From an uncultured bacterium (GTDB lineage: Bacteria > Oederibacteriota > JAAXVQ01), in NCBI GenBank assembly GCA_964604705.1, contig CAZSAP010000014.1, positions 1 to 64,000 of the forward strand: a DNA stretch of 64,000 nucleotides. Reading direction: 5' to 3'. Shown here one piece after another: positions 8,928 to 56,655 of this stretch. Within the stretch, counting starts at the first letter, position 1; each line of letters starts with the position of its first letter. Both the position numbers and the translations under genes were made by a program. The notes below the pieces were generated by a model that saw only the letters and a program-made list of their open reading frames with translations, was not told the origin of the DNA and made no database searches.

Positions 8928-8928
8928 C

Positions 8929-10107
8929 ATGGAACGCGCCATTGTGCACCTGAACATCGCGGACTTTGCCGTGGCCGTGGAACGGACCCTGGACAGCCGC
9001 CTGCGCGGGCGTCCGGTCATCATCGCCCCGGCCGGCGAGGCCCGCGCCACGGTCTACGACATGAGCGAGGAGGCCTACGGCGCGGGCGTGCGCAAGGGGC
9101 AGCCGCTCCCGCGCGCCCTGCGCGCCTGCCGCGACGCCGAGCTCTTGACGCCGCACCCCGAACGGTACGAACACGCCATGCGCGCGTTTCTCAACTGCAT
9201 CCTCCCGTACTCCCCGCGCATTGAAGCCACGGGCGTCCAGGGTCATGTGTTCGTAGACACCACAGGCACCGAGCGCCTCTTCGGCACGGCCATGGACATT
9301 GCCTGGCGCATCCGCAAAACCGCCCGCGCCGAACTGAACCTCAACCCCATCTGGACCGTGGCCCCCAACAAGCTGGTGGCCAAAGTCGCCAGCCGCATGG
9401 TGAAACCCGTGGGCGAGTGCCTGGTGGAAGCCGGCGATGAAGCCGCGTTCTTGGCGCCGCTCCCCGTGCACCTGCTCCCCGGCTTGGAGGCTGAGGATCT
9501 GGCGCGCTTGCGCGAGTACCGCCTGGGCACCATAGGCGATGCGGCGCGCTGGACCCTGCCGCAGCTCGCGCTGCTCTTCGGCACCCGGGCCCGGCATCTC
9601 AGCGAGGCGTTTCGCGGCCTGGATGCCTCGCCTGTCCTCCACGTGGGAGAACAGCCGCCGACCGTGGCTGGGGACCACGCCTTCGGCGAGGACACCAACG
9701 ACGTTGCGCAGGTCCTGGCCGCGCTCCAGCTCCTGGCCGAACACGCCGGGCACGCCCTGCGCGAACAAGGACAGATGACGCAGCGCGTGGGCGTGGTGCT
9801 CGACTACTCGGACGGCGTGCGCGTTGTGCGCCAAGCCGCCCCGCCGAACCCTACGTCCAATGACTTCACGCTTTTTGATCACGCCCGCCGGGCCTTGGAC
9901 CTGGCCTGGACGCGCCGGGTGCGTCTCCGCCACCTGCGCGTGCTCTGCGACCGGCTCTGTTTCCCGCCCGCGCAACTGGACTTGTTCGGGGAGAGCACGC
10001 CGGACGAAACCCGTCGCGCAGGCCTGGTCGCGGCCATGGACCGCATCCGCGGACGCTTCGGCAGTGACGCCATCCATCTGGGACGAAGCTTGGCCGCTTT
10101 GACATGA
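8929..10107 (+). CDS. imuB: ImuB-like catalytically inactive Y-family DNA polymerase
   Basis: Y-family fold, but the DinB catalytic motif DMDAFFASVE is replaced by LNIADFAVAVE (both Asp lost). Its stop overlaps the dnaE2 start (ATGA at 10104-10107). The longer ORF starting at 8875 overlaps DUF72 and is less likely. Confidence 0.75.
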   Translation: MERAIVHLNIADFAVAVERTLDSRLRGRPVIIAPAGEARATVYDMSEEAYGAGVRKGQPLPRALRACRDAELLTPHPERYEHAMRAFLNCILPYSPRIEATGVQGHVFVDTTGTERLFGTAMDIAWRIRKTARAELNLNPIWTVAPNKLVAKVASRMVKPVGECLVEAGDEAAFLAPLPVHLLPGLEAEDLARLREYRLGTIGDAARWTLPQLALLFGTRARHLSEAFRGLDASPVLHVGEQPPTVAGDHAFGEDTNDVAQVLAALQLLAEHAGHALREQGQMTQRVGVVLDYSDGVRVVRQAAPPNPTSNDFTLFDHARRALDLAWTRRVRLRHLRVLCDRLCFPPAQLDLFGESTPDETRRAGLVAAMDRIRGRFGSDAIHLGRSLAALT

Positions 10108-13100
10108 ACCTCCTGCTGGCGTACTCGCATTTTTCCCTCATGTGGGGTACGGCCTCCCCCGAAGAACTCTGCCGCGCGGCGCGGGAAAAAGGGTACACCC
10201 ACCTGGCCCTGATTGACCGCAACAACCTCTACGGCCTCTGGCCTTTTCTCGCGGCCTGTGCGCGGGTAGGTGTGACGCCCGTGGTCGGCGCCACCTTGGA
10301 CGACCCGAACTCCCGGGCCTCGGTCACGGTCTTGGTTGAAAACGAGACCGGCTACAAAAACCTCTGTGGCCTCATCTCCCAGCGCCACATGCACGAACAG
10401 TTCCAACTCGCGGAGGCTTTGTCCTCCCACCGTGAAGGACTCTTGCTCCTGACCCCTCACGCGCCCTTGCTGCGTACGCTGCACGCCTCCGGCACACGTG
10501 TCTTAGGCGCCCTGCAGGTTCTGCCCGGAGACCATTCGTCCGAGCTGCGCCAAGCCGCGCGTGCGCTGGAACTCCCGCTGGCGGCCACAACCCAGAGTGT
10601 CTTCATCCGCCCGGACGATTACGCGATCCACGCCCTGCTCCGGGCCATGGAGGGCAACACCTCGCTCTCCCGCGTAAAGCCGGAGGACCTTGCGCCCCAG
10701 AGCGCCTGGATACCAACGCCCGAGGAGTTCCAACGCCGGTTCGAGGTCTACCCCGAGGCCCTGCGCACCACACAGAGCCTGTTGGCGCGCATCACGTTTG
10801 ACGGCCCGCACCACGGCACCGTGCTGCCGCCCTGGACGAACGCGCACGACCCCAGCGCCGAGGCCACGCTGCGCGCCCGAGCCTACGCCGGTGCCCAAAG
10901 ACGCTACGGCGAGGATTTATCCGAGACCGTGGTGGAACGGCTGGAGAAGGAACTGCGCATCATTGCCGAGAAGGGATTTTCCAGTTACTTCCTGGTGGTG
11001 CAAAACATCATTCAGCGCAGCCCCCGCATCTGCGGACGCGGCTCGGGCGCCGCCTCGCTGGTCGCGTATGCCCTGGGCATTACCAACGTCTGCCCGATCA
11101 AACACAACTTGTACTTTGAGCGCTTTCTCAACCCCGGGCGCATGGACCCGCCGGACATTGACGTGGACTTTGCCTGGGATGAACGCGACGCCGTGCTCCA
11201 ATCCGTGCTGGAGCAATACGCCGGACACGCGGCCATGGTCTGCAACCACGTCTGCTTCCAGCCCCGCATGGCCATTCGCGAAGTGGCCAAGGTTTACGGC
11301 CTGACCGACCGCGAGATTGGCCAAGTCTCCAAGCGCCTGCCCTGGCTCTGGCCCGACGAGGAGGCTCCGGATTTGCAGGCCCGCCTGGAAGCCCTGCCTG
11401 AACTTAAGACCCTGGACTTCCCGCACCCCTGGCCCGAGATCCTCCGCCTTGCGCAGCAGATCATGGGACGCCCGCGCTACATCTCGGTGCACTCCGGCGG
11501 CATGGTCATCACCCCCGGCCCGCTCACGGACTACGCTCCGCTCGAGCGCGCCCCCAAGGGCGTGCCCATTCTCCAGTGGGAAAAAGACGGGACCGAAGAG
11601 AGCGGCTTGGTGAAGATAGACCTGCTGGGCAACCGCAGCCTGGGCGTGATCCGCGATGCGCTGGCGCAGATCCGCGCCCAAGGCCTCACGTTCGACGAGA
11701 CCCTGTGGGAGCCCGAAGACGACGCGGCGACTCAGCGCGCGGTGGCCGAGGGCAGAACCATGGGCTGCTTCTACATCGAAAGCCCGGCCATGCGCCTGCT
11801 CCAGCAAAAGACCGTAAAGGGCGACTTCGAGCACCTGGTCATCCACTCGAGCATTATCCGACCGGCGGCCAATGAGTACATTCACGAGTACGTGCGGCGC
11901 CTCCGCGGCGGCACCTGGGACCCGCTCCATCCTTTGCTCGCCGATGTCCTGGATGAAACCTTCGGCATCATGGTCTACCAAGAGGATGTTTCCAAAACCG
12001 CCGTGGCGCTGGCCGGTTTCAGCCCGGCCGAGGCCGAGGGACTGCGCAAGATTCTGACCAAGAAAGATCGCGCGCACCGCCTGCGCGACTACCGCGAACA
12101 ATTCTTCACCGGCGCCCGCGCGCACGGCGTGGCCGAAGCTGCGATCGAGGCCATCTGGTCCATGATTCTTTCGTTCGACGGTTACAGTTTCTGCAAACCG
12201 CATTCGGCCAGCTACGCGCGGGTCTCGTTCCAGGCCGCGTATCTAAAAGTTCATTATCCGGCGGAGTTCATGAGCGCGGTCATCAGCAACCAAGGCGGGT
12301 TCTACAGCACCTTTGCCTATGTGTCCGAGGCCCGGCGCTTGGGGTTGACCGTGCTCCCGCCGGATGTCAACCAAAGCCAGATCCGCTGGCAAGGGGCTGC
12401 GCGCCACCTGCGAACCGGCTTGCTCTCCGTGCAAGGGCTAAGCCAGTTGACGCAAGAGCGCCTGGTGCAGGAACGTCGCCAGGGTGCGTTCCGCGATTTC
12501 GAAAATTTTGTGGACCGGGTCCGTCCGGACCAAGAGGAAGGACGGGCGCTGATTCATGCCGGAGCCTGTGACTCCCTGGCGCCCGGGCAAGACCGCACGG
12601 TATTTTTGTGGGCCCTGGCCAACCGCACACGCTCCCGCCAAGGTGCGAAAGACAGTGGACAGACCGCGGACCTGTTTGCGCCCGCCACGAGCTTGACCCG
12701 CCCCCCGATTCCCCCGGCGCACGAGATTGACCGGCTGCGCCTGGAATACCGCAGCCTGGGATTTTTGTGCGACCGCCACCCCATGTCCCTGCTCGCCGGT
12801 ACACTGAAACAGCACAAGCTCACCCAAGCGCGGGATCTCGGCAAGCACGTGGGGGCGCGCATCCGCCTGGCCGGATGGCTGATCACAGCCAAGGTTGTGC
12901 CCACGCGCCAAGGCGCCCCCATGGAGTTTATTACCTTCGAGGATGAAACCGGCGTGGTGGAGACCACTTTTTTTCCCGAAGTCTACCGGCGCTTCTGCGA
13001 CCGCCTGGTCTGGAACCGCCCGTTTCTCTTGACCGGCGTGGTGGAGGAAGACTTCGGTGCGCTCACCCTGACCGTGGAAAGTGTCTCGCCGCTCTGGCAC

Positions 13101-13112
13101 GAACGCACTTAA
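10104..13112 (+). CDS. dnaE2: Error-prone DNA polymerase III alpha subunit DnaE2
   Basis: 1002 aa. N-terminal PHP domain (LLAYSHFSLMWGTASPEELC...THLALIDRNNLYG), polymerase core (GRGSGAASLVAYALGITNV...PDIDVDF), short C-terminus without a tau-binding region. Classic imuB-dnaE2 pairing. Confidence 0.85.
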   Translation: MNLLLAYSHFSLMWGTASPEELCRAAREKGYTHLALIDRNNLYGLWPFLAACARVGVTPVVGATLDDPNSRASVTVLVENETGYKNLCGLISQRHMHEQFQLAEALSSHREGLLLLTPHAPLLRTLHASGTRVLGALQVLPGDHSSELRQAARALELPLAATTQSVFIRPDDYAIHALLRAMEGNTSLSRVKPEDLAPQSAWIPTPEEFQRRFEVYPEALRTTQSLLARITFDGPHHGTVLPPWTNAHDPSAEATLRARAYAGAQRRYGEDLSETVVERLEKELRIIAEKGFSSYFLVVQNIIQRSPRICGRGSGAASLVAYALGITNVCPIKHNLYFERFLNPGRMDPPDIDVDFAWDERDAVLQSVLEQYAGHAAMVCNHVCFQPRMAIREVAKVYGLTDREIGQVSKRLPWLWPDEEAPDLQARLEALPELKTLDFPHPWPEILRLAQQIMGRPRYISVHSGGMVITPGPLTDYAPLERAPKGVPILQWEKDGTEESGLVKIDLLGNRSLGVIRDALAQIRAQGLTFDETLWEPEDDAATQRAVAEGRTMGCFYIESPAMRLLQQKTVKGDFEHLVIHSSIIRPAANEYIHEYVRRLRGGTWDPLHPLLADVLDETFGIMVYQEDVSKTAVALAGFSPAEAEGLRKILTKKDRAHRLRDYREQFFTGARAHGVAEAAIEAIWSMILSFDGYSFCKPHSASYARVSFQAAYLKVHYPAEFMSAVISNQGGFYSTFAYVSEARRLGLTVLPPDVNQSQIRWQGAARHLRTGLLSVQGLSQLTQERLVQERRQGAFRDFENFVDRVRPDQEEGRALIHAGACDSLAPGQDRTVFLWALANRTRSRQGAKDSGQTADLFAPATSLTRPPIPPAHEIDRLRLEYRSLGFLCDRHPMSLLAGTLKQHKLTQARDLGKHVGARIRLAGWLITAKVVPTRQGAPMEFITFEDETGVVETTFFPEVYRRFCDRLVWNRPFLLTGVVEEDFGALTLTVESVSPLWHERT

Positions 13113-42600: not shown

Positions 42601-43113
42601 ATACCCGCGTTCCAAAAACCCTATGGCCAGCTTGTCCATGTCCACATGCTGCCCCACGGTGAGTGTCAGGCAGCGGTCCAGAAGCCAGACCGGATCGGCT
42701 ATGACTTCACGCGCCTGCTCCACGGACGTCACGACGATCGGGCGCTCGCCACCGGCCAAGCGCAGGAGAACTTCCAAGCGTTCCCCTTCCACGTCCATGT
42801 CCGTGAGGGCGTGCTCGTACGGGAGGGTCTCGCGTCCGGGAAAATGAAAGATCACTTCGCGCTCAGGATCAGGGTGCTGGAGAAAAAGGCGGAGTTGTTC
42901 ATAGAGGTCTCGGGCTTCGTCACGCGTGGGCGTGAGGATGAGCAGAGGCACATGCAAGCGCTCCGCGGCCCCGGCCCAGAAGAACGCCCGCGCCGAACCC
43001 CAGAGACCCGTGAGCCACGCGTGCGCGGGCGCCGGATGCGCGTCCACCCATTCGCACAGTTGCGTATAGGCAGGGTCTGAGTTGAGTTTTATAAGCAGAG
43101 TGCGTAACGCCAT
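39643..43113 (-). CDS. mfd: Transcription-repair coupling factor Mfd
   Basis: 1156 aa. UvrB-homology N-terminus, RNAP-interacting domain, and superfamily-2 translocase motifs (LVCGDVGYGKTEVA, DEEQHFGV, TATPIPRT, QLRGRVGR). TRG motif region present. Confidence 0.92.
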   Translation of the reverse strand: MALRTLLIKLNSDPAYTQLCEWVDAHPAPAHAWLTGLWGSARAFFWAGAAERLHVPLLILTPTRDEARDLYEQLRLFLQHPDPEREVIFHFPGRETLPYEHALTDMDVEGERLEVLLRLAGGERPIVVTSVEQAREVIADPVWLLDRCLTLTVGQHVDMDKLAIGFLERGYVREPTIETRGQFAIRGGILDIFPPSDLSPWRIEFEGSEIVSIRRFHMQWDDSTPSPAPVNEATIPPARVFAPSAAEIKKGLADLERSKGRELVRPLRERLEEDPTGPGLEHYLPYFVPTSEFIEYWPGDTLVVVESPGAARVKAGEDDARTARLYAEHKKREQVLPSPEELFRSFEDLGVSLLKRRLIQTGRLKQTAWVDDETAAHWTTIIKGADPLRGNLELLVAEAQALLRVGMELHVVSNNRAEEQRLKEILAERAADLQSPDMLGRMEFHVGALSEGFQYPACRMAVFTDQEIFNRRLGRPKPRRVKGGVYSTQPISDLLELKAGDLAVHRDHGIARYQGVVKLGVDGGETEFVCLIYAGDEKLYVPMDQLRLVEKYVGGEGAPRIHRLGSSAWEKTKQRVKEAVTEMARQLLDIYASRQIQAAHAFPPDNSWQKDFEDAFPYEETPDQARAIKELKKDMESEKPMDRLVCGDVGYGKTEVAMRAAFKAVQDRTQVAVLVPTTLLADQHYATFKERMAAYPVRIEYLSRVKNPAEQKVILRDVAQGAVDILIGTHRILSEDVKFAKLGLLVVDEEQHFGVKHKEKMKAIRSTVDVLTLTATPIPRTLYLSLSGIRDISVIETPPLNRLAIRTYVMEYSEEVVREAIVREMARGGQVFFIHNRVQGIEAVAERIKRLVPEARVAVGHGQMSMDELEPVMERFMARSEDVLVATTIVESGLDFPNVNTILINRADAMGLSQLYQLRGRVGRSDRQAYAYLFYPLGGSITGNAEKRLTTLQEFTELGSGFKIAMRDLEIRGSGDVLGKEQSGQVQAVGFETYCSLLEEAVRELRGQRTEAPKEVKLAIPVDAYLPSEYVPDTIMRLNIYKRISGAEKEEDLQEIGRELANRYGPVPEPAQRLLEVAELKLLAGEIGLEEIAVGHRTLNFKWRLWVKPKRDLVDRLLADTKRRIRFIPGEQTGLELERPKTALLASIKNILSELR

Positions 43114-43177
43114 AATACCTTCTGGTCCGCTTAAAGGCAGATCCGCTCGCTTAAGCCAAAGCGATCACACGCCTGTC

Positions 43178-43223
43178 GGACATGGATAAAGTCCCCCTCT
43201 TTGGCAAAGAGGGGCTAGGGGAG
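43178..43223. repeat. Left copy of the direct repeat GGACATGG...GAGGGGCTAGGGGAG flanking a 3.65-kb cassette
   Basis: GGACATGG(43178-43185)...GAGGGGCTAGGGGAG(43209-43223). The partner at 46854-46879 is GGACATGGTGGGAGGGGCTAGGGGAG. The left copy carries an extra internal hairpin CCCCCTCTTTGGCAAAGAGGGG. Confidence 0.55.
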
Positions 43224-43325
43224 TTAGCCAACAAAACACCTACCCTAAAAACCCGACAATCATACCGCAGGAAGCAGCGCGACGGTAGGATTTTTAAAAA
43301 TTATATTTATCCATTTATCCCGCGC

Positions 43326-43350
43326 GTAGGGGCGTATTGCATACGCCCCA
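43326..43350. repeat. Palindromic element copy (GTAGGGGCGTATTGCATACGCCCCAC)
   Basis: First island copy, 100 bp upstream of coiled-coil gene 1. The flanking sequence CCATTTATCC...CGCGATCTTTTTCCTAAGCACGCGTCT is repeated at 44795-44900. Confidence 0.7.
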
Positions 43351-43451
43351 CAATTATTGATCCTTTTCCCCGCGATCTTTTTCCTAAGCACGCGTCTCAA
43401 CAAACCGGTTGCAAAAGTCATAAAAAAGTTTACACTTAGCGGAGATAAGTT

Positions 43452-43775
43452 ATGAACGAAGAAGGGTCTATAACCATGTCCGAATTTAAAACCGTTATCG
43501 AAAGCTTTCAGTCTGACATAAAAAAGCTCGCTGAAGGCATGCAGCATGGCTTCGAAGTGGTAAACGCCGAGCTCAGCTATGTTAAAGCAGACATCCGTGA
43601 GCTCAAAGAAAAAACAGATCGCGTTGAAGTAAAAATTGACTCTCACACCGAACAAATCGCCCGTTTGCAGGAAGATGTTACGGACATTAAAAACTCTTTA
43701 AAACTAAAAGCGGACCGCGAAGAGTTCGCCAAACTCGAAATGCGCGTGACCAAGCTCGAAAACAAAGTCGCGTAA
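43452..43775 (+). CDS. Coiled-coil protein of unknown function (paralog 1)
   Basis: 107 aa, heptad-rich, no TM. Coding sequence and ~150 bp of 5' leader are duplicated at 44960-45304. Confidence 0.6.
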   Translation: MNEEGSITMSEFKTVIESFQSDIKKLAEGMQHGFEVVNAELSYVKADIRELKEKTDRVEVKIDSHTEQIARLQEDVTDIKNSLKLKADREEFAKLEMRVTKLENKVA

Positions 43776-43887
43776 ACTGTCCCAAACTGCCGGCACTTAT
43801 TAAAAAACCACAAAGGGCCGAATGAATTCATAAGCATCTAAATCCGTTTCAGGATTAAGCCCAGGCCCGTCAAAGGAATGTTTCGCT

Positions 43888-44745
43888 ATGCTTCAGCCGT
43901 GTGTGTGTTGCCAGCAGCAGGTTGCTCCCCTTGAGCAACAATCCATTGTCTGCAACCTCCGTCAGTTCCGTCAAAAGCAATTCCTCGTCTGGCGCTGTCC
44001 TCTATGCCGCAGCCTGCATCGCCAAGAGCCCATGGACTTGGCGCCCTATTATCGTGACTACCCTATCCATAAACTCGAACTGGATTTCTGGCTGCGCTTA
44101 CTCAAGGGCAATCTGGTAAGCCATCTCCGCCATGCCGGGCTTACACCCTCTGTTGCATTTCTTGACTTCGGCTGCGGCGCCGGTCTGCTCCTGCGCCTTT
44201 TGGCTGAAAAGGGCTTTACCCACCTGACCGGTTACGACCTTTACCACCCCGAATACAACCACCCTGAGGTGTTGCGCAACCGCTATGATTTTATTTTAGC
44301 CGAAGATGTCCTAGAACATGTGGATGACCCGCAAGCCTTGCTCAAGCACTGGCATGCGTTGCTCAACCCAGGCGGACGAATCCTTATCACCACGGTCAAT
44401 GCCGCGGGCATTGATCTGAACAAACCGGAAGCGTATCTCCACAGCCTGCATCAACCTTTCCACCCGCATATGTTTTCCCCGCAGGCCTTGGAGGACATGG
44501 CCAGGCGTGAATCGTTTCAGGTGCTCCGTTACTATAAGCGCTTCTACTACGACACGCTGATACCTACCGTGAACTATTCTTTTATGCTGGAATACCTTAA
44601 GGCCCAGGGCAATACGTTTGCCGTGGGTCCTGAGGTGGTTGATCTAAAGCTCTTCGTAACCAACCCTGCCTTGTTCTTCTATGCCTTCTTTGGCTATTTT
44701 TTCCCCAATCACGGACTCATGATGATGTTGCTGGAGAAAAAATAG
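43888..44745 (+). CDS. Class I SAM-dependent methyltransferase with N-terminal Cys4 zinc ribbon
   Basis: CVCCQQ...CPLC zinc ribbon. Motif I LDFGCGAG, motif II DFILAEDVLEHVDDP, motif III LNPGGRILITT. Confidence 0.75.
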   Translation: MLQPCVCCQQQVAPLEQQSIVCNLRQFRQKQFLVWRCPLCRSLHRQEPMDLAPYYRDYPIHKLELDFWLRLLKGNLVSHLRHAGLTPSVAFLDFGCGAGLLLRLLAEKGFTHLTGYDLYHPEYNHPEVLRNRYDFILAEDVLEHVDDPQALLKHWHALLNPGGRILITTVNAAGIDLNKPEAYLHSLHQPFHPHMFSPQALEDMARRESFQVLRYYKRFYYDTLIPTVNYSFMLEYLKAQGNTFAVGPEVVDLKLFVTNPALFFYAFFGYFFPNHGLMMMLLEKK

Positions 44746-44798
44746 ATCGCCTGTGTGCTTAACCGCACATGCATCGGCGTGTACCCATTTATCATTCC

Positions 44799-44824
44799 GT
44801 AGGGGTGTATTGCATACGCCCCTC
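44799..44824. repeat. Palindromic element copy (GTAGGGGTGTATTGCATACGCCCCTC) plus a half-copy at 44846-44860
   Basis: Between the methyltransferase and coiled-coil gene 2. Confidence 0.65.
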
Positions 44825-44959
44825 TAATGTTTACGCCCTTTTGTTTTACATACGCCCCACGATTATTCACTATTTCTCCGCGATCTTTTTCCTAAGCACG
44901 CGTCTAAACAAACCGGTTGCAAAAGTTTAAAAAAAAGCTACACTTGTCGGAGGCAGCAC

Positions 44960-45304
44960 ATGAACGAAGAAGGGTCTATAACCATGTCAGAGTTTAAAAC
45001 AGTTATCGAAGGGTTTCAGTCCGATATAAAAAAGTTAGCAGAAGCCACGCAGTTCGGTTTCGAGACCATGAACGCCGAGTTCCGCTATGTCAAAGCCGAT
45101 ATCCGCGAACTCAAGGAAAAAGTTGATCGTCTTGATGTGAAAACGGATCAACTCTCAACCAAGTCCGACTCCCACGCCGAACAGATAGCCCTTTTGCATG
45201 AAGACGTGACGGACATTAAAAATTCTTTAAAACTGAAAGTCGACCGCGAAGAGTTCGCCAAGCTCGAAATGCGTGTGACCAAGCTGGAAAACAAAGTCGC
45301 TTAA
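44960..45304 (+). CDS. Coiled-coil protein of unknown function (paralog 2)
   Basis: 114 aa. About 75% identical to 43452-43775. N-terminus MNEEGSITMSEFKTVIE and C-terminus REEFAKLEMRVTKLENKVA identical. Confidence 0.6.
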   Translation: MNEEGSITMSEFKTVIEGFQSDIKKLAEATQFGFETMNAEFRYVKADIRELKEKVDRLDVKTDQLSTKSDSHAEQIALLHEDVTDIKNSLKLKVDREEFAKLEMRVTKLENKVA

Positions 45305-45347
45305 CCCAAAACCTCCCCTCTAGCATTCCCTATTCTTGTATCCCGTA

Positions 45348-45465
45348 GTAGGGGCGTATTGCATACGCCCCTACGAATTTTCCATTTTCCATTCTCGATT
45401 CTCTGCCCTTCCCGCCTCTGTTTCGTTTGTCATCCCGGACCCCGATCCGGGATCCAGTGACTTTG
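45348..45465. repeat. ~120-bp direct repeat (copy 1) flanking the radical-SAM gene
   Basis: Palindrome plus CGAATTTTCCATTTTCCATTCTC...TGCCCTTCCCGCCTCTGTTTCGTTTGTCATCCC...GGGATCCAGTGACTTTG. Copy 2 at 46638-46788 carries a ~40-bp insertion. Confidence 0.6.
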
Positions 45466-45567
45466 TTTTCTGTTTTTGAATTTATTGATAGTCCATACCC
45501 CACCCTCATCCTTTAACGCCTATGCGCCGTTACTTAACCCAACAAGCCAACAAGGAAGCGTGAGATC

Positions 45568-46599
45568 ATGTCCGAACCCAGTTCTTCCCCAAGCCAGGAA
45601 GTACATGTGTACTATATCGAAGTTGCGGCCGCCTGCAACCTGCGCTGCCCTTCGTGCCCGAACGGCAATTCGCGCGATCCCAAACGCGCCCGGGGGCACA
45701 TGGACCCGCAGCTACTCTCACAGATACTCGAGAAGATCACCCAGGAATCCCCAGCCCGCGTGACCGATCTCTACTTTGTAAATTGGGGGGAGCCCACGCT
45801 CCATCCCGACCTCCCGCGCCTGATCGAACTCGCCCGGAGCAAAGGTCTGCCCCCGCATCTCTCCAGCAACCTCGCTGCTGCCTGCGATCTGCGCGAGATC
45901 GTGAAGGCCGGCCCCAAATCCCTCCGGATCTCCCTCTCCGGATACGACCCCGAGGTGTACAAGCGCATGCACTACCCCGGCGATGTGTGGATGGTCAAGT
46001 CCAACGCGTACCGACTCCGCTCGCACCTGAACTCCCTGGGCTCGGACATGCCCGCGCATTTTTGCTACCACCAGTATGTGCACAACATGGGTGCGGATTT
46101 GGAGAACGTCCGGCATCTGGCGGAGGAGCTGGGGTTTGCCTTTGAGCCGGTGCTGGCGTTTCTCGCACCTCTGGAACGGTATCTGGACTACCTGAAGGGG
46201 ACAGCCTCGCCGGAGGTTCGGAACCTGGTCAACCAACTCCTGGTCCGCCCCGAGGAGGCCAAGGCCGCAGCCTATGAGCATGCGCGCCGCCACCCCGCGC
46301 CGGACTGCGGACTGCGCGCCTGCCAAACGGTCATTGATTTCAACGGTCAGGTCTCACTGTGCTGCGCCGTGTACGAAGAGCAGAACAACCTCGGGGTCCA
46401 TTTTTTAGATGCACCCCACGCCGAACTCCAGCGCCTGAAATACGCCCACCCCCTCTGCCGCATCTGCATGCAGCACTACGGCCACCTCTACTACCTCTAT
46501 GCCGGGCGCGAAACCCTGGACCGCATTGCCAAGGAACGCCTGCAAGCCTTGAACGGAACCAACGCCGAAAGAGAACTATTCATTCCGGGAATCCGGTAG
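45568..46599 (+). CDS. Radical SAM enzyme with SPASM-like C-terminal cysteine cluster
   Basis: CNLRCPSCPNG (Cx3Cx2C) near the N-terminus, SAM-binding GEPTLHPD, and C-terminal Cys-rich CGLRACQ...SLCCAV...CRIC. Not viperin-like (that motif is CNYxCxFC). Confidence 0.8.
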   Translation: MSEPSSSPSQEVHVYYIEVAAACNLRCPSCPNGNSRDPKRARGHMDPQLLSQILEKITQESPARVTDLYFVNWGEPTLHPDLPRLIELARSKGLPPHLSSNLAAACDLREIVKAGPKSLRISLSGYDPEVYKRMHYPGDVWMVKSNAYRLRSHLNSLGSDMPAHFCYHQYVHNMGADLENVRHLAEELGFAFEPVLAFLAPLERYLDYLKGTASPEVRNLVNQLLVRPEEAKAAAYEHARRHPAPDCGLRACQTVIDFNGQVSLCCAVYEEQNNLGVHFLDAPHAELQRLKYAHPLCRICMQHYGHLYYLYAGRETLDRIAKERLQALNGTNAERELFIPGIR

Positions 46600-46637
46600 G
46601 GGCGCGGAGGTTTGGTGCACTTTGTGCGGTTGTGATG

Positions 46638-46788
46638 TGGGTCGTATGCAATACGCCCCTACGAACTTTCCATTTTCCATTCTCTGCCCTTCCCGCCTCT
46701 GCTTTGTTTGTCATCCCCGCCCTTGCAAGAGCTTAGATAAAATATCCATCCTTGCGCCTAACGACTCCCTCGGGGATCCAGCGACCTT
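46638..46788. repeat. Direct repeat (copy 2) 3' of the radical-SAM gene
   Basis: See 45348-45465. Contains an RYYYAAC-like GCCTAAC at 46759-46765. Confidence 0.6.
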
Positions 46789-46853
46789 GATCTTTTATTT
46801 TCGATTTTCCATTCTCCATTTTCCATTTTCTTTTATTCTTATTCCCCGCCCCA

Positions 46854-46879
46854 GGACATGGTGGGAGGGGCTAGGGGAG
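46854..46879. repeat. Right copy of the cassette-flanking direct repeat
   Basis: GGACATGGTGGGAGGGGCTAGGGGAG. Overlaps the stop codon of the REC gene. Confidence 0.55.
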
Positions 46880-47245
46880 GGGGCTTCCAGTCTTCCACAT
46901 TACACGTTCAATCACCCGCCTCAACTCGTCCAACTCAAAGGGTTTGGCCAAGCACGCAACCGCGCCGGCTTGCAGGGCCTGCCTCTCCAGCCGCTCCGTA
47001 AGTGCGCCCGAGATGAAGATGACCTTCGGACGCGGGTGGAGGTGTTTCACCATTTCCAAAAAGTCCAACCCACCCAAGCCGGGCATGAGGTAGTCCACAA
47101 CCACCACGTCCGGGGTTTGCAGGGCCAGGCAGGCAAAAGCCTCGGGCACTGAAGGTGCTACGGACAGGAGGTATTCGTGGCCTAAAGTCAGTACCAAGGC
47201 TTCCAAGAACAACTCGTGATCGTCGATGAAGAGAATGTGGGGCAT
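46871..47245 (-). CDS. Stand-alone response-regulator receiver (CheY-like) protein
   Basis: ILFIDDHELF...DVVVVDYLMPGLGGLDFL...KVIFISG...A..KP matches the REC fold with phospho-acceptor Asp. Confidence 0.8.
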   Translation of the reverse strand: MPHILFIDDHELFLEALVLTLGHEYLLSVAPSVPEAFACLALQTPDVVVVDYLMPGLGGLDFLEMVKHLHPRPKVIFISGALTERLERQALQAGAVACLAKPFELDELRRVIERVMWKTGSPLP

Positions 47246-47366
47246 GGGGGTAACACGCTTTCCTTTCTTTCCTCAAGTACGTTACCTAAAAAGTCGATGC
47301 TGGAACAGAAGCACAAGTGCGCTTCCGCGTACTATTGGGGGTAAAAAAAATGCTACGCTTTGGCCC

Positions 47367-49887: not shown

Positions 49888-49910
49888 CGGGCGTATGTAA
49901 TACGCCCCTA
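49888..49910. repeat. Palindromic element copy GGGCGTATGTAATACGCCCCTAC plus a 35-bp extension shared with 55162-55225
   Basis: Member of the GTAGGGGCGTAT-TGC-ATACGCCCCTAC family. The following ACGGCGCATGTTGTACGCCTCACGACT is repeated at 55190-55222. Confidence 0.7.
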
Positions 49911-50137
49911 CACATTTAACGGCGCATGTTGTACGCCTCACGACTGTTTGGTGCTTTGGGGGACGGAAACAACTTAGCAACTTAGACAAGACCTGAACCG
50001 TTAAACCCTTTTTCTATGTAGCCAGCGCAGGACTCGATCTATTCGCTTATGCCCCTATAAACGTCTACTTTCAGCTTATACTTTCCATTTTGATTTCTGG
50101 TCTTGCATCCGCCAACCAACGTCTCTGACTGCTAGTG

Positions 50138-50156
50138 GGCGTATGCAATACGCCCT
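50138..50156. repeat. Palindromic element copy (GGGCGTATGCAATACGCCC)
   Basis: Shortened member of the family. Confidence 0.6.
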
Positions 50157-50223: not shown

Positions 50224-51726
50224 CTATCGTACAATGGCAATCTTGCCACTACCCAATTTTTTATACCGACCATTTGTTTTGGTTCGGGCCCGGTAGGTAT
50301 ATACGCCTGACGCAACATTGCCGCATTCCCAGACTGGAGCTACGGTGGAATCACTTTGTTGGATTCTAGCAATGCGTTCGCCACACATATTATATATTTC
50401 AGCATCAAACTCAATTCCATCGGTTTCCTGAAATGCAAAGGTCACTTTGGTATGAGCCGGGTTGGGAAACGTAATGACCGGTTTATCAGCTGTGAACGTA
50501 AGTGGCCATGACTTGGGAGGAACTTCTTTAACTGTCATTATCCGAATCTGTGGGTAGGATGCATTTTCCGCAGCTTCACTCCACCCCAGGTAAAGTTCGT
50601 TGTGGAAGATATCCAGATAAGGATTTTGGGCGTGGATATTTGGGTTAAGGTTGAACGAATTGGCTGACGCTCCAAACAACGCCCAAGATCCATTTTCAAA
50701 TTTTTGTAAGTAAATATTGTCATTTTCAATCCAGGTCAGATAAATAGTCTGGTCCAGTGCAGTAAGGATCGGCGAAGCGGCGTACGTTTCACTTATTTTT
50801 ATAAGCGGCGGTAATAATTCCCAGGCCGTTCCGTTATAACGCTTAACAACAATATTCGACGATTCCCGCCAAGTAACATAAAGGCTCTCGCCAATTTCCT
50901 TTAGACAGATTTGATAGGCGGATTTATTCTCAGAAATACTGATATCAAGGTTTAACCCTCCGCCATCAACACTCTCCCAGGCCGTGCCATTAAATCGTTT
51001 CAAAAACAAAACGGCAGTTTTTTTATTATCAACGTATTCAAGCCACGCTGCATACGGGACCCCTTTATATGCACATATTTTCGGATAAGTCCCGCTGTTG
51101 CTCGGATTGTTCACGCACGATCCCCCTACGGCTTCCCAATCTGTTCCATTAAATTTCTTTACATATATTTTTGTAGCGCCATACGCGACTTTATCTTCAC
51201 ACCAGGTTATATAGGGTTGGTCATTAATAATCTGAATATCCGGTTGGCTTGCGCTATATCCATCTAAATTTTTTAGTCCCCCACTTCCCATCAAACTCCA
51301 GGAGCTACCATTATAATATTTTGCATATACTTGAAACGGATAGTAATTATTTTCAGCCCATGTGGCAGTAACGCCATTGTTCCAGATAGCAATTTGGGGT
51401 TGTGATGCTGTCTCGTCAACATTTACGTTTAAACTGTCCGCTCCAAGAACCTGCCAATCTGTACCGTTATACTTTTTCACATACGCTTGCCAGGACTTAA
51501 AATTCCAAGCACCATGCATTGAATGTTCCTGCCACGTGCAATATAAAAACTCATTGTTGCTGCAAAAATCCGGCGAATAGGCTTCTTCCTGTGAATTCAT
51601 ATTCAAACTCATGCTTACTTTCCGAGTTTTTACAGCGGCCTGACACGGCAGTGCCCAAACTATCAACATTAATATCGCTGTCCATCGCGATATATATTTT
51701 TTTAATGTTTTGATTTTTAATTGCAT
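50224..51726 (-). CDS. Secreted repeat (beta-propeller-like) protein with T9SS-type CTD
   Basis: Signal peptide. Six repeats of Y(V/A)KK(F/Y)NGT(D/A)W(E/Q)xxG. CTD ITFPNPAHTKVTF...IYNMCGERI...GVYTYRARTKTNG...KIAIVR. About 42% GC. Confidence 0.65.
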   Translation of the reverse strand: MQLKIKTLKKYISRWTAILMLIVWALPCQAAVKTRKVSMSLNMNSQEEAYSPDFCSNNEFLYCTWQEHSMHGAWNFKSWQAYVKKYNGTDWQVLGADSLNVNVDETASQPQIAIWNNGVTATWAENNYYPFQVYAKYYNGSSWSLMGSGGLKNLDGYSASQPDIQIINDQPYITWCEDKVAYGATKIYVKKFNGTDWEAVGGSCVNNPSNSGTYPKICAYKGVPYAAWLEYVDNKKTAVLFLKRFNGTAWESVDGGGLNLDISISENKSAYQICLKEIGESLYVTWRESSNIVVKRYNGTAWELLPPLIKISETYAASPILTALDQTIYLTWIENDNIYLQKFENGSWALFGASANSFNLNPNIHAQNPYLDIFHNELYLGWSEAAENASYPQIRIMTVKEVPPKSWPLTFTADKPVITFPNPAHTKVTFAFQETDGIEFDAEIYNMCGERIARIQQSDSTVAPVWECGNVASGVYTYRARTKTNGRYKKLGSGKIAIVR

Positions 51727-52713: not shown

Positions 52714-55059
52714 TTAACGTATGATTGCCAGTTTGACCCTATCTATCACCCTACCGTCCACTTCAAAGACCGCTAGATAGATACCTGGCGCAATCCCGCG
52801 GCAATCGCAGACAATTTCAGACCGCTGTATCCCAGAGAGACTTCGTGACAGCTCTATAACCTTTTCACCTACTAGGTTTAACAGACGTATTTTAACTTCG
52901 ATGGGTTTTTCTGAAGAAAACAAGAATATAATTTTGTCCCGAGCAGGATTGGGATAAGCAAAAACATCTCGACCAAATAGATTAGTCCGATTCGGTGTTA
53001 TAGTAATTGTTGGAGTAACCGTGCGGTTATAAGTAATCGTATCGGTGGGAGTATTAGGGGTTGTCGATGTTGGGTTTATATTTCCACAGTCACTAATACT
53101 CCAGCCATATGTATTGACCAGTATATTTCTGGCAGTAACTGCTTCAGCACTACTATATTTGCTACTTCCGGCATTAAAGCTTACATTATTTTTTACACTT
53201 TGAGAGCCCCAGCCTGTTAGCAGATTATCATAATTTGCACTAGCGAGAGTAACGCCATCAAACATGTCTGAAGCAGTTGTAAGTTTGGTTACATTCCATC
53301 CACCTATGGATTGATTAAAGGTGCTTGCATTTTTAAACATATTACTCATATCCGTCACATTTTCTGTGTTCCAACTCCCAATAGCTTGATTAAAAGCGCT
53401 AGCATAATAAAACATAGAGCTCATATTCGTCACCTTCGACGTGTCCCAGTTCCCGATATTTCGATTAAAAACACTGCAGTAAAACATACTTCTCATACTT
53501 GTTACCTTTGATGTGTTCCAGTTCCCGATATCTTGATTAAAAACCCTAGCATTATCAAACATATTGGCCATATTCGTCACGTTCCCTGTGTTCCAGCTCC
53601 CGATATCTTGATTAAAGGCCCAAGCATTATCAAACATATTGGCCATATCCGTCACGTTCCCTGTGTTCCAGCTCCCGATATCTTGATTAAAGGCCGTGGC
53701 CTCAACAAACATCCGCCTCATACTTGTCACTTTAGACGTATTCCAGCTCCCGATGTCTTGATTAAAGGCATAGTTGTCAAAAAACATCCCGCTCATATCC
53801 GTCACATTCGCCGTGTCCCAGCTTCCAATATTCTGATTAAACCTTGTACCTTCGAACATACCTCTCATACTCGTCACCTTTGATGTGTTCCAGTTCCCGA
53901 TATTTTGATTAAAGACGCTAGCACACAGGAACATACAGTTCATATCCGTCACATTTCCTGTGTTCCAACTCCCGATATCTTGATTAAAGGCGCGGGCGAA
54001 ATAAAACATAAAACCCATATCTGTCACATTCGCCGTGTCCCAGCTCCCGATATTCTGATTAAAACTTGTACGTTCGAACATACTTCTCATACTTGTCACC
54101 TTCGATGTGTTCCAGTTTCCGATATTTTGATTAAAGACGCCGGCACCAGCAAACATACCGCTCATATCCGTTACATTTCCTGTGTTCCAACTCCCAATAT
54201 CTTGATTGAAGGCACTAGCGTCAGCAAACATCTCATGCATATTCGTTACCTTAAACGTTTTCCAGCTTCCGATATTTTGATTAAAAACGTTGGCACTATA
54301 AAACATATGGCTCATATCTGTCACATTTTCTGTGTTCCAGTTCCCAATATTCTGATTAAAAACGCCGGCGCCATAAAACATCTGCCTCATAGCTGTTACA
54401 TTTGACGTATTCCAATTTCCGATATTCTGATTAAAGGCGCCGGCATACAAAAACATGTAGCTCATATTCGTTACATTCGCCGTGTTCCAGCTTCCGATAT
54501 TCTGATTAAAGCCGGTACTGCCGAATAAACCACTCATATTTGTCACATTTGCCGTGTTCCAGTTCCCAATATTCTGATTAAAATTAGTACTTGCTAACAT
54601 CCAGCTCATATTGGTTACGTTGCTCAAATTTGGTGTATCTGTGGCATTCCCAAGGAGATTGATGCAACCGGAAAATGCACGTTCCATGCTGGTCCAGATA
54701 CCTGTTCCCCATTGATCAACGCTGATGATTTTTTTACTATCGCCGGTGTAGTTAAAGTAAATCCTGGGAAAACCAGTCTTCATGCCACTGTTGTCTTTAA
54801 TGCGGATGGTATAAGTTCCCGCTATGGCGTAATTACAAGTATAGTCCCCGGTTTGCGCGGTGGCTTCATCTGTACCGTCGTTATTACAGTCCACGTTGTA
54901 GTTGTAGCCCGCGCCTGTAGTGGGGATTATGAATTGATTGGAAAACGAAGTTCCCGAGTTGTCGGTCTTAACAGTGATAACGAAATCATCAGTGGGTGCA
55001 GCTTGTAACACAACAGGAGTCAGCAATACGGTCAAAACAATACAAACTATTTTTTTCAT
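52714..55059 (-). CDS. BspA-family/DUF285 leucine-rich-repeat surface protein with T9SS-type CTD
   Basis: Signal peptide. About 18 tandem ~23-aa repeats FNQNIGNWNTSNVTxMxxMF (DUF285/BspA LRR type). CTD FAYPNPARDKIIF...LLNLVGEKV...GIYLAVFEVDGRVIDRVKLAIIR. About 42% GC. Confidence 0.75.
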   Translation of the reverse strand: MKKIVCIVLTVLLTPVVLQAAPTDDFVITVKTDNSGTSFSNQFIIPTTGAGYNYNVDCNNDGTDEATAQTGDYTCNYAIAGTYTIRIKDNSGMKTGFPRIYFNYTGDSKKIISVDQWGTGIWTSMERAFSGCINLLGNATDTPNLSNVTNMSWMLASTNFNQNIGNWNTANVTNMSGLFGSTGFNQNIGSWNTANVTNMSYMFLYAGAFNQNIGNWNTSNVTAMRQMFYGAGVFNQNIGNWNTENVTDMSHMFYSANVFNQNIGSWKTFKVTNMHEMFADASAFNQDIGSWNTGNVTDMSGMFAGAGVFNQNIGNWNTSKVTSMRSMFERTSFNQNIGSWDTANVTDMGFMFYFARAFNQDIGSWNTGNVTDMNCMFLCASVFNQNIGNWNTSKVTSMRGMFEGTRFNQNIGSWDTANVTDMSGMFFDNYAFNQDIGSWNTSKVTSMRRMFVEATAFNQDIGSWNTGNVTDMANMFDNAWAFNQDIGSWNTGNVTNMANMFDNARVFNQDIGNWNTSKVTSMRSMFYCSVFNRNIGNWDTSKVTNMSSMFYYASAFNQAIGSWNTENVTDMSNMFKNASTFNQSIGGWNVTKLTTASDMFDGVTLASANYDNLLTGWGSQSVKNNVSFNAGSSKYSSAEAVTARNILVNTYGWSISDCGNINPTSTTPNTPTDTITYNRTVTPTITITPNRTNLFGRDVFAYPNPARDKIIFLFSSEKPIEVKIRLLNLVGEKVIELSRSLSGIQRSEIVCDCRGIAPGIYLAVFEVDGRVIDRVKLAIIR

Positions 55060-55126: not shown

Positions 55127-55161
55127 ATTCACCCCTTATGTCTAAACGCACTGCTTTTTTT

Positions 55162-55225
55162 GGGCGTATGCAATACGCCCCTACACATTCAACGGCGCAT
55201 GTTGTACGCCTCACGACTATTTGAT
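55162..55225. repeat. Palindromic element copy plus shared 35-bp extension
   Basis: TTTTTTT-GGGCGTATGCAATACGCCCCTAC-ACATTCAACGGCGCATGTTGTACGCCTCACGACT. Same composite unit as 49888-49945. Confidence 0.7.
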
Positions 55226-55316
55226 GCTTCTGCTGTTTGAAATATTCTGATGAAACTGCTCTAGGACTGCCAGGAGAATCATATGCCTTTTACTCTGGGT
55301 GGACAAGTACTTTTCC

Positions 55317-55838
55317 TCACGTCCCTGCGGTAAACCCGATCTTCCTTTTCTTCGACGCTTCAGGCTCAGGGCGCAGGTCGTCGAGGACCTGAAACACTTC
55401 GTCTATTTGCCGATCATGTTTGAGTAACTTCACCTCATGCCGGTTAAGCCGCTCAAGTAGATGCCGTTGGCTCTCTTGACTGTTTCGCAACTGAATAAAC
55501 GCACGCATTATTTGAACGTTGACCATGATGGCTCGTTGACTTCTTAAAACGCTCGACAACATAGCCACTCCGGGTTCGAGAAAAACAAACGGCAAAAATC
55601 CGCCGAAACTTCGTTTGCTTGGTATCACACTTTGTGATACCAACGCTTCTGCTTCAGACTTAGCTAGTTGAAAAACGAAATCCTCAGGAAATCTGTGGGC
55701 ATTGCGTTTTACTTGCTGGCGTAGAGCAATGGCTTTAACCCCATACAGTTCTGCCAGGTCGCGGTCCAACATAACCTTCTGCCCGCGTATAAGATGGATT
55801 TTTCTTTCAATGCGTTCAACCGGGACTAGTTCCGACAT
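55317..55838 (-). CDS. ORF6N-domain protein (KilA-N-like DNA-binding, phage antirepressor-type), copy A
   Basis: MSELVPVERIERKIHLIRGQKVMLDRDLAELYGV...VKRN..RFPEDF...GVAMLSSVLRS..AI.VN matches ORF6N. The long N-terminal extension in the ORF track (VCNTPLRIRTKC...) is translation of the palindrome and a conserved leader, so the start is placed at MSELV. Confidence 0.75.
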   Translation of the reverse strand: MSELVPVERIERKIHLIRGQKVMLDRDLAELYGVKAIALRQQVKRNAHRFPEDFVFQLAKSEAEALVSQSVIPSKRSFGGFLPFVFLEPGVAMLSSVLRSQRAIMVNVQIMRAFIQLRNSQESQRHLLERLNRHEVKLLKHDRQIDEVFQVLDDLRPEPEASKKRKIGFTAGT

Positions 55839-55924
55839 ACTCACTCCTGATAGAGATTGGGTTTTTATTTGGACAGGAGTGTTGCGGAAAAATCGCAGGT
55901 AGAAGATACATTTTGTTCGTATTC

Positions 55925-55951
55925 GTAGGGGCGTATTGCATACGCCCCTAC
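55925..55951. repeat. Perfect 27-bp palindrome GTAGGGGCGTATTGCATACGCCCCTAC
   Basis: 12-bp stems with a 3-nt loop. Directly abuts the stop codon of ORF6N copy B. Confidence 0.75.
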
Positions 55952-56469
55952 ATGCCGATTTTAAACCCGATCTTCTTTTTCTTTGGCGCTTCCGGTTCAG
56001 GACGCAGGTCGTCGAGGACCTGAAACACTTCGTCCAGCTTGTGTTCATGCTGCATCAACTTCGTCTCGTGTTTGTTTAGCTGATTCAGCACAAACAGCTG
56101 AGCTCCTTGCTCAATACGGAGTTGAATAAAAATCCGTATTATCTGGATATTAACTTGTATGGCGCGCTCAGTGTTGAGGACACCGGATAACATCGCGACT
56201 CCACCTTCAGAAAACGCGTGAGGTAAATATTTACTATGTTCGCCACGCTTTAAGGTCACAAAATGTGACCTTAAAGCATTGAGTTCACTCAACACTAATT
56301 GGAACATGAAATCATCCGGAAAACGGTTCAAATTGCGCTTCACCGCTTGGTTGAATACTTTGGTTTCCACCCCATACAACTCAGCGAGGTCACGGTCCAG
56401 CATGACTTTTTGCCCGCGGATGAGGTAAATTTTTCGTTCAATGCGTTCAACCGGTACAAGTTCCGCCAC
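55948..56469 (-). CDS. ORF6N-domain protein, copy B
   Basis: MAELVPVERIERKIYLIRGQKVMLDRDLAELYGVETKVFNQAVKRNLNRFPDDFMFQL... ending PEPEAPKKKKIGFKIGM. Confidence 0.75.
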   Translation of the reverse strand: MAELVPVERIERKIYLIRGQKVMLDRDLAELYGVETKVFNQAVKRNLNRFPDDFMFQLVLSELNALRSHFVTLKRGEHSKYLPHAFSEGGVAMLSGVLNTERAIQVNIQIIRIFIQLRIEQGAQLFVLNQLNKHETKLMQHEHKLDEVFQVLDDLRPEPEAPKKKKIGFKIGM

Positions 56470-56655
56470 TGCAACTCCTGTACGAAATTATATTAATCAT
56501 TTCGACAGGAGTGTTGCGGAAAAATCGCGTGCGGGTGATGAATTATTATCAAAAGAGGGCAACCAATGTCTCAAGCCAATAGCTAATACAAATTTCTGTT
56601 GTTGAAATGAGGTGAGTGTATAGTTCCCCTATAAACCTAAAAAATCACAACGACA

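Follow-up and report, generated by a model that had tools for sequence, protein, structure and literature searches.

Repetitive extragenic palindromes (REPs) accumulate in 3' intergenic spacers and form hairpins on single-stranded DNA. They are recognised, and cut at the foot of the hairpin, by a REP-associated tyrosine transposase (RAYT), an HUH/Y1 enzyme that is present once per genome and acts in trans. Here we analysed a 64-kb stretch of DNA from an uncultured bacterium (contig CAZSAP010000014.1, positions 1 to 64,000, hereafter the window), in which a radical S-adenosylmethionine (radical-SAM) gene lies between two direct repeats that include a palindrome. An earlier note on this DNA had likened the repeats to the attC sites that separate the cassettes of sedentary chromosomal integrons, with miniature inverted-repeat transposable elements (MITEs) or REP composites as a fallback. 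Our results showed that the repeat is real and its explanation ordinary, being a fresh occurrence of a known REP family. The palindrome is almost certainly a GTAG-tagged REP of the TnpA_REP subclass 2.4 (RAYT group 4) type, and the whole arrangement is probably due to this REP together with the local duplication or recombination of a spacer that contains it, in an island prone to rearrangement.

GTAG-tagged REPs have been defined previously (PMC2817692, PMC3733652). The REPs of subclass 2.4 described by Quentin et al. 2018 (PMC6006769), which corresponds to RAYT group 4 of Bertels et al. 2017, are long, have three G-C pairs at the foot, include "double foot" forms and show in-frame insertion in the transposase gene. 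The enzymes of this subclass carry the motifs NH[IFV]H, WQ and YIxNNP, and are found in Cyanobacteria, Bacteroidetes and, in a scattered manner, in other phyla (PMC6006769). A central deletion within an inverted REP pair has been suggested as the origin of double-foot REPs (Quentin et al. 2018, PMC6006769). Other described systems with which the locus can be compared are the REPs and bacterial interspersed mosaic elements (BIMEs) of E. coli, the doublets of inverted REPs called REPINs (Bertels & Rainey 2011), integron attC sites and MITEs.

A GTAG-headed palindrome in the intergenic spacers of the window

The palindrome GGGGCGTAT-TGC-ATACGCCCC was detected at 10 sites (15 strand-matches) in the window, against none in shuffled sequences. 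All sites are intergenic, with five in each orientation, and all are located between 43.3 and 60.2 kb. The element consists of a GTAG foot, a stem of 9 bp (12 bp in the double-foot form) that begins with GGGG, and a 3-nt loop; the written form of the element is GTAGGGGCGTATTGCATACGCCCC. On the strand carrying the TGC loop, GTA precedes the GGGG in 9 of the 10 copies, and 3 of the 10 end in TAC as well, giving the double foot. Folded as single-stranded DNA, the palindrome gave a perfectly paired stem of 12 bp closed by a 3-nt loop. Since the conserved unit is made of GTAG and a hairpin, it corresponds to a GTAG-tagged REP as defined. REPs of this class are palindromes of 20-40 nt whose 5' end carries a GT[AG]G tetranucleotide, unpaired or as part of the foot. 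The window copies share with subclass 2.4 REPs the GTAG foot, at least three G-C pairs at the base of the stem, the 3-nt loop and the double-foot variants (GTAG...CTAC). Moreover, the identical sequence GTAGGGGCGTATTGCATACGCCC is listed verbatim in the supplement of PMC6006769 as the REP of the subclass 2.4 protein AGH38469.1, and the palindrome is therefore an already catalogued REP. In the literature found, this sequence is given for one genome only.

With respect to genes, the REPs of the window are placed 36-133 nt beyond stop codons or overlap the stops. A position 3' of stop codons is the usual one for REPs. The REPs and BIMEs of E. coli, associated with RayT (YafM), are similar in being GTAG-headed extragenic palindromes located in the 3' spacers of co-directional genes, at times as mosaic units, and in being substrates of a Y1 HUH enzyme. 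However, they belong to subclass 2.2 and have longer, bulged stems, and BIMEs alternate inverted REPs with defined linkers, whereas the additional modules at our locus (described below) are private and occur twice. Three paralogous genes encoding ORF6N-domain proteins (55331-55896, 55962-56528 and 59502-60086; 68-76% at the nucleotide level) are separated or flanked by REPs, and two of their stop codons are the TAG of a GTAG foot.

Distribution of the REP and of RAYT genes in other genomes

The distribution of the REP was assessed by scanning one genome per species for the exact 21-mer, which yielded at least 118 stretches; the number of assemblies was counted from record titles. The 21-mer was found in at least about 80 assemblies (at least 118 loci) belonging to at least 14 phyla, cultured isolates included. 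The hosts comprise Pasteurellaceae, Moraxella, Methylococcaceae, Desulfobacterota, Cyanobacteria, Bacteroidota, Ignavibacteria, Zixibacteria and Chloroflexota, as well as Fibrobacterota, Omnitrophota, Latescibacterota, Nitrospinota, Nitrospirota, Planctomycetota, Atribacterota, Patescibacteria and Clostridia. Among the matches listed (124 copies from 118 loci), G, T and A are conserved in 90, 86 and 86% of cases at positions -3, -2 and -1 of the stem, a 3' TAC is present in about half of the copies, and the flanks further out are random. Inverted REP doublets with a spacing of 15-30 nt were observed in other genomes (L002, L004, L049 and L113). Cultured carriers of the 21-mer include Pasteurellaceae, Flavobacteriia, Cyanobacteria and Cysteiniphilum.

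Clustering of the open reading frames (ORFs) from the 118 loci revealed one specific REP-adjacent family, a RAYT cluster of four members; apart from generic ABC and histidine-kinase families, no other cluster stood out. The four RAYT-like ORFs (126-216 aa) lie beside the REP in Moraxella (L001), Conservatibacter (L059), a member of Thermodesulfobacteriota (L060) and a member of Bacteroidales (L108), and carry the motifs PNHxHGI, VWQRNYYEH and YIxNNP. The NCBIfam model NF047646 (REP_Tyr_transpos, "REP-associated tyrosine transposase") matched the L001, L060 and L108 proteins with 61-79 bits and the truncated L059 ORF with 29.7 bits, all four scores being lower than the equivalog cutoff of 80 bits. 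With Pfam Y1_Tnp (cutoff 23 bits), the L001 protein scored above the cutoff (24.3 bits) and the L060 protein below it (20.1 bits), while L108 and L059 gave no match. In L001, two inverted REPs at 121(+) and 692(-) bracket the 176-aa RAYT-like ORF (156-683). In L059 (ORF 3-380, minus strand) and L108 (ORF 6468-7082, minus strand), the REP is located in frame inside the RAYT ORF, where it encodes GVCNTPL and GVCDTPL, respectively. REPs flanking RAYT genes with NH[IFV]H, WQ and YIxNNP motifs, their in-frame insertion within these genes and a scattered occurrence among phyla are all features in common with subclass 2.4. The L060 RAYT ends in the REP-derived GAYCIRPYNAIRPY, which agrees with a reported peculiarity of this subclass.

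The REP-adjacent RAYT-like proteins share 42-51% identity with one another. Judging from these sequences, the DNA hairpin is far better conserved than the presumed enzyme. The presence of the exact REP in many phyla together with diverged RAYTs fits a horizontal spread of subclass 2.4 systems and a strong constraint on the hairpin.

Two copies of a composite repeat flank the radical-SAM gene

The flanking of the radical-SAM gene by direct repeats that include the palindrome was confirmed. Self-BLAST aligned 45351-45436 with 46639-46717 (84% identity over 86 nt, E 1e-20), as did MAFFT, and the two copies share an exact 23-nt box. From its 5' end, copy 1 is composed of a double-foot REP, ATTTTCC heptads, the 23-nt box, GTTTGTCATCCC, a second hairpin (hairpin 2), GGGATCCAGTGACTTTG and a T-rich tail. 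The shared modules previously pointed out, GTTTGTCATCCC and GGGATCCAGyGACyTTG, are indeed seen in both copies, followed by similar T-rich tails. An insertion of about 40 bp had also been noticed in the downstream copy. We measured a net insertion of ~43 nt relative to copy 1, with the loop of hairpin 2 enlarged by ~50 nt, and the RYYYAAC-like GCCTAAC noticed in this copy was located at 46756-46762, within the inserted sequence. The arms of hairpin 2 in copy 2 are ATCCCCG (46713-46719) and CGGGGAT (46771-46777); one base pair differs between the copies, with both sides changed. Within the composite copies, the ATTTTCC arrays are short (2.4 units at 45377-45393 and 2.1 units at 46667-46681). With a third array of 4.9 units (46797-46830), these arrays of differing unit number adjoin REPs and resemble slippage-prone tracts.

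The similarity between the copies breaks off sharply at the REP side. The non-REP modules were found at no third place in the window and in none of 127 fetched loci. A 34-nt pattern of the composite had no match in metagenome contigs, and a 20-mer had only three, which are chance matches within coding DNA. The non-REP part of the composite is thus a private two-copy sequence in all data searched. Promoter and terminator scans gave no excess over shuffled sequences, and hairpin 2 was not called as a terminator. Rfam yielded nothing over the whole window at gathering thresholds and nothing at E<=1 over 43.1-47.3 kb.

These observations bear on the idea that the composite of 136-172 bp is a MITE-, REPIN- or BIME-like element, mobile but non-autonomous, which entered this DNA in two insertions and was moved by a RAYT acting on its REP end. 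The composite begins exactly at the REP, where the similarity stops abruptly, its second hairpin shows one compensatory pair change, and the REP forms REPIN-like inverted doublets elsewhere. However, only two copies exist in 64 kb and none in the 127 loci or the metagenome scans, the two ends of the composite do not form inverted repeats, and we saw no target-site duplication. MITEs have terminal inverted repeats, target-site duplications and many copies, none of which is shown by the two-copy composite. REPINs resemble the REP of our study in that it occurs as short-spacer inverted doublets in several other genomes, but each composite holds a single REP with a hairpin 2 (ATCCCGGA/TCCGGGAT) that is unrelated to it, and there is no inverted doublet in the window. 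With neither terminal inverted repeats nor a visible target duplication, the composite is neither a MITE nor a REPIN, and we regard its independent mobility as quite improbable. Of the fallback of the earlier note, the REP alternative was therefore right for the palindrome, and the MITE alternative fails on the missing terminal inverted repeats and the presence of two copies only.

We also considered that the repeats might stem from mis-joined or duplicated contig ends, as the source is a contig of a metagenome-assembled genome (MAG), and as independent contigs break at the repeats of a small gene (gene A, Table 1) located nearby. These contigs come from Logan, an independent assembly of run ERR3839026, and agree with the window at 100% identity. 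Between the two copies there is a divergence of 11-16% plus indels, which means that no single sequence was placed twice. In addition, one Logan contig (L129) extends without interruption from the 3' end of the radical-SAM gene through copy 2 into a response-regulator gene at 100%. The structure is therefore not explained by the assembly, and the probability of an artefact is close to negligible.

Integron features are missing from the locus

The cassette reading had rested on the view that such an element lies between every two neighbouring genes from 43.3 to 46.8 kb, always in one orientation. The spacers and the orientations did not bear this out. The other junctions have just the 24-27-nt palindrome, and the spacer between gene A and the following methyltransferase gene (43775-43888) has none. 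The resemblance 5' of the two small genes (gene A and its paralogue, gene A') is a 450-bp gene duplication and not a spacer element. The palindrome at 46636-46663 has the opposite orientation to the other three, with a GCA instead of a TGC loop and its GTAG foot on the minus strand. The rule for integron cassettes, one usually promoterless ORF with its own attC and all in the same orientation, does not describe these genes, since conserved sequence of ~100 nt precedes gene A and gene A', REP4 points the other way, and the spacer between gene A and the methyltransferase gene is bare.

attC sites are conserved in structure and diverse in sequence. They resemble the repeats of the window in lying between co-oriented genes, in a locus that varies among relatives, and in that a single-stranded DNA hairpin is probably the active form. 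In support of an integron-type array (a sedentary chromosomal integron or an integrase-less attC cluster), repeats occupy three of the four spacers of four co-oriented genes, one RYYYAAC-like heptamer (GCCTAAC) is present in copy 2, and the locus differs among relatives. However, no RYYYAAC...(40-150 nt)...GTTRRRY pair was found on either strand of 43100-47300 (shuffle mean 0.78), and the GCCTAAC of copy 2 has no R' partner. DNA folding of each strand of the two copies, including the bottom-strand fold that an attC site would be expected to adopt, showed neither an R/L-box hairpin nor extrahelical bases. What formed was a perfectly paired short hairpin (stem of 9-12 bp, loop of 3 nt) and a second, small one, and the folds of copy 2 were no better than shuffled sequences (z-scores -0.1 to -0.9). 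The hairpin measures 24-27 nt, compared with 57-141 nt for attC. Integron arrays adjoin an intI gene with attI and Pc. No tyrosine recombinase or Phage_integrase match was obtained with Pfam among the major ORFs of the window, so that no intI was seen there, and tblastn of the window with IntI1 gave noise only. A search for tRNA genes that could anchor an island in the window found none.

Unlike attC sites, which have R''/R' core sites about 50-140 nt apart, extrahelical bases, a cognate IntI and diverse sequences, the palindrome is conserved in sequence (0-2 mismatches across sites), is found in both orientations and in unrelated genomes, and includes a 24-mer identical to a catalogued REP. 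The integron reading is refuted for the window, and an integron-type array of any kind appears very improbable. Where REPs give a locus the appearance of a cassette array, its annotation as an integron or an integrase-less attC cluster should be avoided.

A probable local duplication in a variable island beside mfd

The closest named relative of the mfd gene product is from a MAG of candidate division FCPU426 (64% identity), the next one dropping to 43%. Based on this similarity, the host is an FCPU426-like uncultured bacterium, with many proteins sorted by the type IX secretion system (T9SS). In relatives, synteny is kept from mfd into the core side of the window (28.5-43.1 kb). Beyond mfd, two of them (L119 and L130) have a DUF6788/nucleotidyltransferase gene pair (toxin-antitoxin genes), and another (L131) has a Tricorn-like gene and an ATP synthase operon. 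In a contig from JGI 3300075153, mfd is followed by gene A (81%) and then immediately by ORF6N; the methyltransferase gene, gene A' and the radical-SAM gene are all missing. The 17-kb REP-bearing stretch of the window is not syntenic with these relatives, and no REP of this family was found in 49 kb of relatives' DNA or in the other 47 kb of the window. The low-GC part extends over 47.7-59.4 kb, with island GC partly at 0.38-0.45; GC at third codon positions (GC3) of its genes is 0.27-0.60, against 0.56-0.80 in the core. We examined whether the far edge of the island is syntenic with L131, but the 966-aa ORF found there is unrelated to the L131 Tricorn-like gene.

The four genes next to mfd form two successive units. 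A 450-bp direct repeat (43334-43775 and 44843-45304, 79% at the nucleotide level), which holds a REP remnant, an upstream region and gene A, brackets the methyltransferase gene (MTase), and the composite repeat brackets the radical-SAM gene (rSAM). The layout can be written R1(REP + gene A)-MTase-R1'-R2(REP + spacer)-rSAM-R2', in which both enzyme genes lie between REP-headed direct repeats. In terms of GC3, gene A and gene A' are at 0.51-0.55, the methyltransferase gene at 0.64, the radical-SAM gene at 0.77 and mfd at 0.78.

Ten REP copies thus populate a variable island of 17 kb beside mfd that is low in GC in part, and two copies of one spacer, made of a REP and ~110-145 bp of private sequence, bracket the radical-SAM gene. 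According to the explanation that we consider probable, this spacer was duplicated locally, through recombination (unequal or homologous) or because the gene was inserted by way of the repeats. An event of the same kind may have given the 450-bp "REP + promoter + gene A" repeat around the methyltransferase gene. The composite's own REP would be minus-oriented, as in copy 2, and copy 1 would carry a double-foot REP derived from a fused inverted REP pair; this would explain the "flip" of the loop between the copies.

The same layout could result from a Campbell-type insertion, in which a circle carrying the radical-SAM gene and one REP-containing spacer recombined into a resident copy, the methyltransferase gene being inserted likewise. 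This is suggested by the REP-headed direct repeats around both enzyme genes (R1-MTase-R1'-R2-rSAM-R2'), by the relative that has mfd, gene A and ORF6N only, and by the mosaic GC3 of the block. On the other hand, the GC3 of the radical-SAM gene is close to that of mfd and hence not import-like, the independent Logan assembly of the same run shows neither circle junctions nor any other arrangement, and a simple duplication accounts just as well for repeats that each exist in two copies only. We therefore see this insertion as unlikely. An even broader proposal is that the genes lying in REP-containing repeats (the methyltransferase, radical-SAM and ORF6N genes) form an integrase-free cassette array, a hot spot of gene gain and loss beside mfd that would be shuffled by a RAYT acting in trans or by recombination between spacers; we hold this to be a long shot.

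Several points weigh against local duplication involving an active REP family. The window differs from described subclass 2.4 systems in that no RAYT gene was found in it, and REP activity in this host is accordingly a prediction from sequence; in addition, the copies are confined to a 17-kb accessory island, and the FCPU426-like lineage is not covered by the published survey. Being confined to an accessory, partly low-GC island, the REPs could be passengers of imported DNA. The duplication mechanism is deduced from two copies only, and direct repeats of 84-89% around a gene would also be expected after insertion of a circular unit by recombination. Finally, the compensatory change in hairpin 2 hints that the private part is under some structural constraint, which would be superfluous in a spacer that had simply been duplicated. 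Taken with these reservations, a REP-marked island with REP-headed repeats around several genes is a possible natural case for studying REP-associated rearrangement.

Confinement of REPs to an accessory island is unusual compared with reports of REPs in core genomes, and they may have been imported with the island. A Y1_Tnp/RAYT-like fragment is present in L119 (159-632), at a contig end near mfd (55 bits with NF047646). It differs in type from the subclass 2.4 proteins, sharing 23% identity with the L060 RAYT, and no REP of the family lies near it.

Features of the locus and further observations

The coordinates of the REPs, genes and repeats are collected in Table 1.

Table 1. Position of REPs, genes and repeat modules in the window.
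Feature	Position	Strand	Description
REP1	43325..43349	+	GTAG foot and perfect 21-mer; between divergent mfd and gene A
REP2	44798..44823	+	1 mismatch; 52 nt 3' of methyltransferase stop
Degenerate half-REP	44834-44862		After REP2
REP3	45348..45374	+	Double foot, GTAGGGGCGTAT-TGC-ATACGCCCCTAC; 43 nt 3' of gene A' stop
REP4	46636..46663	-	Minus strand CGTAGGGGCGTATTGCATACGACCCACA; 1 stem mismatch; 36 nt 3' of radical-SAM stop
REP5	49888..49911	-	2 mismatches; within 68-nt REP-plus-flank repeat common with 55162-55229
REP6	50136..50156	-	2 mismatches; GTGG foot on plus strand; 68 nt 3' of stop, gene 50224-51726
REP7	55161..55184	-	Downstream of ORF6N paralogue 1
REP8	55925..55951	+	Double foot; between ORF6N paralogues 1 and 2; paralogue-2 stop codon in GTAG foot
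REP9	59502..59525	-	GTAG foot holds stop codon (59522-59524) of ORF6N paralogue 3
REP10	60115..60141	+	Double foot; last REP of the island; 92 nt 3' of stop, gene 60233-63133
Gene A	43452..43775	+	107-aa coiled-coil protein; 81% homologue beside mfd in relative
Methyltransferase gene	43888..44745	+	Class I SAM, Methyltransf_23; bracketed by gene A / gene A' direct repeat
Gene A'	44960..45304	+	Paralogue of gene A, 80% aa; upstream region duplicated along
Radical-SAM gene	45568..46599	+	343 aa, PF04055; GC3 0.77 like core genes; nearest homologues <=54% identity
Composite repeat copy 1	45348..45483	+	136 bp, between gene A' and radical-SAM gene
23-nt exact box	45398..45420	+	ATTCTCTGCCCTTCCCGCCTCTG; copy 1, with copy-2 twin at 46679-46701
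Hairpin 2	45432..45453	+	Copy 1: ATCCCGGA-cccc ga-TCCGGGAT
Composite repeat copy 2	46636..46807	+	172 bp, 3' of radical-SAM stop; modules as copy 1, REP inverted
ATTTTCC heptanucleotide array	46797..46830	+	4.9 units

Homologues of the radical-SAM gene adjoin Methyltransf_23 genes in other loci (L124/L125 and L126). A conserved operon of methyltransferase and radical-SAM genes was considered and is not claimed, since the methyltransferase of the window is only marginally similar to those of L124/L125/L126. The family of gene A is tiny: 5.8 billion clusters contain 8 proteins belonging to it.

A second repeat, GGACATGG...GAGGGGCTAGGGGAG, formed by a G/C hairpin followed by CTAGGGGAG, is located at 43178-43223 and 46851-46879 in direct orientation, with only these two copies in the window. 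They bracket the whole block of gene A, the methyltransferase gene, gene A' and the radical-SAM gene, and the repeat is also found at L119:6413-6458, just 3' of mfd. It may be a dispersed palindromic element or a recombination scar. In the same relative, L119:1320-1384 is a 65-nt copy of the mfd 5' end (77% identity; window 43105-43041), 1.3 kb upstream of the real start. This copy lies on the far side of the DUF6788/nucleotidyltransferase pair, which suggests that the pair was inserted with a duplication of the mfd start.

Elsewhere in the window, positions 8875-13112 contain imuB-like (IMS) and dnaE2-like error-prone polymerase genes with a GC content of 0.65, against 0.50-0.55 in the surroundings. 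Positions 53311-54582 belong to the gene of a 781-aa DUF285 protein with a T9SS sorting tail, which is made up of ~17 tandem units of 75 nt (72% matches).

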